DNA of 64,000 bases, from NCBI RefSeq assembly GCF_044647545.1, contig NZ_CP172818.1. The stretch is one strand, 5' to 3'. This stretch comes from Escherichia coli. Its GTDB lineage: Bacteria > Pseudomonadota > Gammaproteobacteria > Enterobacterales > Enterobacteriaceae. Each line of letters begins with the position of its first letter. The first letter of the stretch is position 1. Below are positions 20,181-20,291 of the stretch, one piece after another. The translations under genes were made by a program, and so were the position numbers. The notes beneath the pieces are model-generated. The model was not told the origin of the DNA. It ran no database searches and worked only from the letters and a program-made list of their open reading frames with translations.

Positions 20181-20291
20181 GGTCTTTTCTCCCCAGGGAG
20201 AGGGCCGGGTGAGGGTAACAGCCTGCACCTTTGTACTTTTTAATCAATCTTCGCCGGGGGCCATGCGCTCCCGCTGTTGTGGAGGTTACCC

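Follow-up and report, generated by a model that had tools for sequence, protein, structure and literature searches.

The intergenic spacer between gmhA and yafJ raised the question of what the GC-rich repeat lying in it is, and why this spacer is shorter here than in Escherichia coli MG1655. For the window, that is, the whole 64-kb stretch of E. coli DNA analysed, the first-pass annotation had described a GC-rich palindromic repeat family at three sites, had suggested that the shorter spacer could reflect variation in the copy number of the repeat, and had considered the elements as possible terminators or recombination sites. The observation itself was confirmed, and its interpretation was partly supported. 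The motif belongs to BoxC, a repeat that has long been described in E. coli and also goes by the names PIT element and TMECO. With high confidence, the two copies in the cryptic prophage CP4-6 are read as TMECO #3 and #4, the copy after gmhA as a decayed, lineage-restricted BoxC allele, and the length difference of 94 nt as an allelic replacement.

BoxC copies in the window

Exact matches to the 21-mer GGGAGAGGGCCGGGGTGAGGG were located at nt 56653-56673 and 63796-63816 of the 64-kb window, and the 20-mer GGGAGAGGGCCGGGTGAGGG, which has one G fewer, at nt 20196-20215. The motif was matched in none of 100 dinucleotide-preserving shuffles, by which a chance origin was ruled out, and the presence of a repeat family at three sites was thus borne out. 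These sites, extending over nt 20196-20215, 56639-56674, and 63784-63817, were all intergenic, in gmhA/yafJ, yagA/yagE, and xynR/argF, respectively, and the BoxC load of the 64 kb amounted to three copies and one fragment.

BoxC has been known since the 1990s as a short, GC-rich, interspersed repeat in the intergenic regions of E. coli and its relatives; the BoxC/PIT literature reportedly comprises work by Bergler in 1992, reviews by Bachellier in the 1990s, and studies by Hoyne and Maher in 2000-2002. We know of no enzyme for BoxC. The element is built of three blocks, one of pyrimidines and two of purines, the first purine block being the inverted counterpart of the pyrimidine block, and a single strand of an intact copy folds in vitro into a hairpin onto which the third block is laid as a triplex. 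A separate survey placed BoxC among the known E. coli families, with 56 bp and 32 copies in MG1655. The TMECO consensus is CCCTCNCCC N3-6 GGGNGAGGG N3 GGGNGAGGG, with a second loop of TTA in type A and CCG in type B, and MG1655 possesses 23 strict copies, every one of them intergenic (Holder 2015, PMC4666352). In the same study, CD and NMR revealed the triplex in vitro for consensus oligonucleotides of both types, and the arrest of primer extension at TMECO #3 was attributed to the triplex under the assay conditions (Holder 2015, PMC4666352).

In a regex scan, the full three-block pattern CCCTCNCCC-N3-6-GGGNGAGGG-N3-GGGNGAGGG was observed at two sites (nt 56639-56673 and 63784-63816) and was absent from the gmhA site, where only the two purine blocks matched. 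The term palindromic holds for blocks 1 and 2, which are inverted with respect to each other, but not for block 3, which repeats block 2 in direct orientation. The complete copy between yagA and yagE (nt 56639..56674, plus strand) corresponded to TMECO #3 of MG1655, classed as type B with one mismatch, and that between xynR (yagI) and argF (nt 63784..63817, plus strand) corresponded to TMECO #4. Both were of type B, with the CCG second loop at nt 56662-56664 and 63805-63807, respectively. In the entries of Table 1, TMECO #3 is given as CCCTCGCCCCTTTGGGGAGAGGGCCGGGGTGAGGGG (MG1655 282,101-282,136) and TMECO #4 as CCCTCTCCCTGTGGGAGAGGGCCGGGGTGAGGGC (289,246-289,279), identical letter for letter to the window copies at 56639 and 63784, and the entries of Supplementary Table S2 place #3 in yagA/yagE and #4 in yagI/argF (Holder 2015, PMC4666352). 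The distance from one copy to the other was 7,145 bp in the window as in MG1655, the yagA-yagE region was 100% identical to that of MG1655, and nt 44000-64000 were 99.7% identical to K-12. Both copies lay within the MG1655-annotated cryptic prophage CP4-6, beside cargo genes. Folded as single-stranded DNA, these intact copies gave -13.4 and -14.0 kcal/mol, with z of about -2.4.

The window copies share with BoxC/TMECO the three-block consensus, the type-B CCG loop, and the intergenic placement, as well as the occasional inverted pair and degenerate copies. The gmhA-yafJ copy differs in being absent from K-12 and in departing from the strict consensus, with an arm of 6 nt and loops of 2 and 2 nt. 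As for the two inverted copies that had been described between yagA and yagE, one was complete, but the other was a truncated inverted arm, CCCCAAAGGGGAGAGGGG (nt 56599..56616, minus strand), which was 18 nt long, 94% complementary to nt 56638-56655, and 21 nt apart from it. Together, the two segments make a long hairpin, with a DNA fold of -21.4 kcal/mol (z = -2.57).

The truncated arm borders directly on that end of the yagA element which bears the repeats. The yagA gene (nt 55367-56521, minus strand) was flanked by inverted copies of CGGGGACATRGTRRACA, one at nt 55346-55362 and two at nt 56550-56566 and 56573-56589; the intervals of the element were 55342-55368 and 56547-56598, and its right end, ...GGACCGTACA, continued straight into the BoxC arm. 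The yagA element has the look of a remnant of a transposon or IS that landed in one of two BoxC copies lying in inverted orientation. A diverged copy of IS1 (nt 53707-54468), 91.5% identical to IS1I, was also present in the CP4-6 region.

REP and BoxC alleles of the gmhA-yafJ spacer

The gmhA stop codon ended at nt 20180 and the yafJ ATG was located at nt 20292, leaving a spacer of 111 nt (nt 20181-20291) versus 205 nt in MG1655, in which gmhA spans 243543-244121 and yafJ 244327-245094. The shortfall of 94 nt agreed with the figure of about 90 bp that had been suggested, and the observation stands; alignment of the two spacers revealed differences in both length and sequence. The REP consensus GCCKGATGCGRCGY N RCGYCTTATCMGGCCTAC was matched three times in the spacer of MG1655, with 0, 1, and 3 mismatches, but nowhere in that of the window. 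The alignment also showed no BoxC block in the K-12 (MG1655/J53) spacer, by which BoxC copy number, the cause originally proposed, was rejected. That the spacer was shortened by having fewer copies of BoxC than MG1655 carries virtually no probability: the shortfall is real, but the MG1655/J53 spacer has its three REPs and no BoxC, no TMECO near 244 kb appears among entries #1-#7 (to 497 kb) of Table 1, and gmhA, lpcA, and yafJ are not named in the available parts of the supplementary material (Holder 2015, PMC4666352). Judged from the alignments, the window and K-12 alleles carry unrelated repeat families, and the 94-nt difference represents an allelic replacement in the slot bounded by the stop codon of gmhA and the conserved leader hairpin of yafJ. 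This is the correction gained: the length difference is one of REP versus BoxC.

The decayed BoxC (TMECO type B; nt 20182..20215, plus strand) was delimited by alignment with a complete orthologous copy from strain 1190 and with the 6-bp-deleted form from FDAARGOS_497, SCU-171, and MS21-1, and begins 1-2 nt past the gmhA stop codon. Its 5' part is a left extension, GTCTTTTC; a remnant of the pyrimidine arm, TCTCCC (nt 20188-20193), is followed by a 2-nt loop, CA, purine block 1, GGGAGAGGG (nt 20196-20204), by CC, and purine block 2, GGGTGAGGG (nt 20207-20215), ends the element. Downstream of it lies a filler, TAACAGCCTGCACCTTTGTACTTTTT (nt 20216..20241, plus strand), which in the alignments travels with the BoxC allele and is missing from the REP alleles. 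The strain 1190 copy, TCTCCCTCTCCC TTTCA GGGAGAGGG CCG GGGTGAGGG, conforms to the TMECO consensus. Relative to it, the window copy lacked 6 nt of the pyrimidine arm (one TCTCCC of the tandem TCTCCC-TCTCCC), 3 nt of loop 1 (TTT), and 1 nt of loop 2 (one G of the G4 run), the second loop being CC after one base had gone from the CCGGGG run. All three deletions were situated inside the 37-nt element, and the remaining about 74 nt of the spacer had no indels. Against the TMECO consensus, the purine blocks of the window copy matched with a 2-nt spacer, the pyrimidine block was represented by TCTCCC only, and loop 1 by CA; the strict consensus is thus not attained, and membership in BoxC therefore rests on orthology to the complete copies. 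Replication slippage, which yields deletions of all three kinds, would be the route of decay.

As single-stranded DNA, the decayed copy did not fold better than shuffled sequences (-5.6 kcal/mol, z = +0.41), and as RNA a hairpin of -18.3 kcal/mol (z = -0.54) was predicted. Since the arm is down to 6 of 9 bases and a hairpin of at most 5-6 bp can form, the gmhA copy is most likely an inert relic; with the RNA hairpin predicted for it, some residual effect on the gmhA 3' end could conceivably persist.

Among E. coli strains, the spacer was observed as alleles of 205 or 204 nt with three REPs (K-12 J53 and ST131), 104 nt with one REP (O157:H7 and WP3-W18), 121 nt with a complete type-B BoxC, CCCTCTCCC TTTCA GGGAGAGGG CCG GGGTGAGGG (strain 1190), 115 nt with a BoxC in which the tandem TCTCCC-TCTCCC is down to a single unit (FDAARGOS_497, SCU-171, and MS21-1), and 111 nt (the window), in which the 115-nt form had further lost TTT from loop 1 and one G from the CCGGGG run. 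This allele series shows the decay of BoxC by small deletions. In a census of 5,426 complete E. coli genomes, based on BLAST coverage thresholds, the three-REP, K-12-type spacer (coverage of 80% or more) was found in 4,554 (84%) and a BoxC-type spacer in 329 (about 6%), the latter divided into approximately 46 with the full-length 171-nt span (complete) and approximately 283 with the 6-bp-deleted span. The remaining genomes, approximately 540, fit the one-REP form, consistent with about 530 records in the 90-95% identity band. The exact 111-nt form was present in none of the 5,426 genomes (best match, 96.9%) and the window backbone was 96-98.9% identical to MG1655; the window lineage therefore lies outside this collection. 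Given the three-REP form in E. albertii and in 84% of E. coli, the BoxC allele would most simply be derived within E. coli, and it is the three REPs of E. albertii that suggest a direction from REP to BoxC.

In most E. coli, as well as in E. albertii, exactly this slot downstream of gmhA is taken up by REP/BIME (PU) elements, which are similar to BoxC in being short, GC-rich, imperfectly palindromic, and intergenic. They are, however, a sequence family unrelated to BoxC, with a dedicated Y1 transposase, the gene of which (rayT) is located 3.4 kb away in K-12. At nt 23433-23444 of the window, rayT and six flanking REPs (MG1655 247,469-248,359) were missing, and no canonical REP was present in the window segment homologous to MG1655 223,995-270,000, versus nine in K-12. 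The rayT gene was absent from the window and from four other strains with the BoxC allele; a strict linkage between this allele and the absence of rayT was rejected, as SCU-171 has both the allele and rayT and WP3-W18 has REP without rayT.

BoxC as a family was already known, as were two of its three copies in the window; the remaining copy, decayed and restricted to a lineage, is an allele at a slot prone to repeats. This is ordinary polymorphism, with no sign of a new kind of element or function, and it carries little weight beyond annotation, the gmhA-yafJ allele being one more case of the known variability near BoxC.

The spacer in other Enterobacterales

YafJ loci were collected from 80 Enterobacterales species, and the gmhA-yafJ spacer was obtained for 78. 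The basal spacer in these species was about 45 nt long and consisted of a conserved hairpin and the yafJ ribosome-binding site. Short spacers of 18-55 nt were present in 44 of the 78, most of them 38-51 nt, with the GC hairpin followed by GCTGTTGTGGAGG and ATG. In the window, this conserved core, common to all E. coli alleles and most Enterobacteriaceae, occupied nt 20246..20291 (plus strand), with an RNA fold of -20.3 kcal/mol. Its GC hairpin, from the RNAalifold consensus, paired nt 20255-20261 with 20267-20273 (plus strand). Covariation across 34 species supported the hairpin: 79.6% of the cells were paired versus 43-58% when the pairing partner was slid, and double changes were observed at 5 of the 7 pairs. 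A possible outer stem was predicted between UCUUC (nt 20248-20252) and the GGAGG of the yafJ ribosome-binding site (nt 20281-20285), upstream of the ATG at nt 20292; if formed, it could sequester that site, and the core hairpin could be a terminator-like hairpin of gmhA or a translational gate for yafJ.

Varied repeats were found upstream of the core. REP-like inserts were present in 12 of the 78 species, among them the representative of E. coli with one REP and E. albertii with three (204 nt), and ERIC in four, all of them Citrobacter species. BoxC-like sequences occurred in two Buttiauxella spacers, one near-complete and of type A (L074) and the other a hairpin remnant (L076). Other inserts in the slot were found in six species, and 10 or 11 had a block of about 105 nt that contained yet another palindromic element. 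Like BoxC, ERIC/IRU elements have landed in the gmhA-yafJ slot, namely in several species of Citrobacter, where a weak Rfam match to V_AS5 was obtained, but they are unlike BoxC in sequence, about 127 bp long, and absent from the window spacer.

The block of about 105 nt (L021, L040, L043, L044, L050, L053, L057, L059, L063, and L075), hosted by Citrobacter braakii, Kosakonia, Phytobacter, Raoultella terrigena, and others, had an inner palindrome, GGGCAGTGC...GCGCTGTCC, and its outer part was common to the ERIC-bearing Citrobacter species; an Rfam search of the block gave no match. The REP cluster of E. albertii (L012, nt 1007-1083) matched Rfam naRNA4 with 61 bits versus a gathering threshold of 59.5; naRNA4 is a REP-derived nucleoid-associated RNA.

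Within E. coli, the slot most often holds three REPs, in some genomes a single REP, and in about 6% a BoxC; in other Enterobacteriaceae it has been colonised independently, upstream of the core, by REP, ERIC, BoxC, and other elements. It may even be a true insertion hot spot for several families, on which REP, ERIC, BoxC, and the further palindrome landed independently through a shared targeting cue or through selection for a hairpin, but this stronger reading is regarded as rather improbable. If it were true, the targeting cue might be a hairpin exposed at the 3' end of the gene, or, in the case of hairpin selection, BoxC would have spread by the route of REP-like elements. A slot in which four or more unrelated repeat families alternate is a possible natural test bed for the effects of such repeats on flanking genes.

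Proposed instability and 3'-end functions

The gmhA-yafJ spacer is a textbook case of the variability around TMECO loci. In a comparison of 56 strains, these loci varied more than control intergenic sites, with many copies "mutated" or missing (Holder 2015, PMC4666352). The function as recombination site suggested for the repeat matches this comparative proposal, and the deletions in the allele series, all internal to the element, would fit BoxC as a proposed site of recombination or instability.

A doubtful but tenable explanation is that the BoxC triplex, or H-DNA, stalls replication and destabilises its neighbourhood, the replacement of REP by BoxC and the internal deletions being consequences. 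The excess variability of TMECO loci in the 56 strains, the intrastrand triplex seen in vitro, and the block of DNA polymerase by PIT elements in vitro, found in earlier work, are consistent with it (Holder 2015, PMC4666352), as is the confinement of the three deletions to the 37-nt element. On the other hand, DMS footprinting in vivo at TMECO #3, the copy at 56639, detected no stable triplex (Holder 2015, PMC4666352), and the deletions affected a tandem repeat and a homopolymer, which slip without a triplex. Moreover, the slot is equally variable in REP-only or ERIC-only lineages, so the variability may be its own; the two statements that BoxC causes instability and that the slot tolerates or attracts repeats are therefore not separated by these data. 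Allelic replacement in a repeat-prone slot remains the preferred reading.

Spread of BoxC by phages or plasmids was ruled out by searches of both kinds of records. No BoxC match was obtained in 50,697 phage records, in which only two weak Campylobacter phage matches were found. Of 72,556 plasmid records, 117 matched, and most of the best-scoring matches listed were F-prime plasmids of K-12 (about 232-242 kb), replicons of very large size, or records as long as a chromosome. These results agree with the description of the TMECO family as not linked to mobile elements (Holder 2015, PMC4666352).

Scans for terminator-like and promoter-like consensus sequences around the three sites gave none overlapping any BoxC copy, and a GC-rich stem-loop followed by a T-run, as in intrinsic terminators, was found at none of the copies (0 of 3 sites). 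Rfam searches gave nothing at the BoxC sites at the gathering threshold over the whole window, and nothing but one spurious match at E <= 0.1 over nt 19000-30500. REP elements are known as stabilisers of mRNA 3' ends, and the element after gmhA might likewise act as a terminator or a stabilising hairpin, the repeats in the slot being interchangeable solutions. This is considered quite unlikely. Like Rho-independent terminators, the gmhA-site BoxC has a GC-rich hairpin just past the stop codon, within 1-2 nt of it, an RNA hairpin of -18.3 kcal/mol is predicted for it, and in most of the 78 species gmhA is followed by some hairpin-former (basal, REP, ERIC, or BoxC). However, the BoxC sites differ from such terminators in having no U-tract and no consensus match, the folds were not above those of shuffles as either RNA or DNA, and the separately conserved hairpin at nt 20255-20273 is the better candidate for such a role. 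The published tests of the family point the same way, PIT elements having shown neither promoter nor terminator activity and no in vivo effect in earlier work (cited in Holder 2015, PMC4666352), and the terminator role that had been proposed was not upheld.

Some further differences from MG1655 were observed elsewhere in the window. At nt 28418-28421, about 130 nt of MG1655 (253,334-253,462, downstream of yafP) were absent, and at nt 33220-33227 crl was intact, the IS1I of MG1655 being missing there. Between the prfH/ykfJ region and pepD, nt 29179-29578 comprised about 400 nt versus 36 nt in MG1655, and this insert was very AT-rich, with long runs of T and A (e.g. T10 ATTTTT A15).
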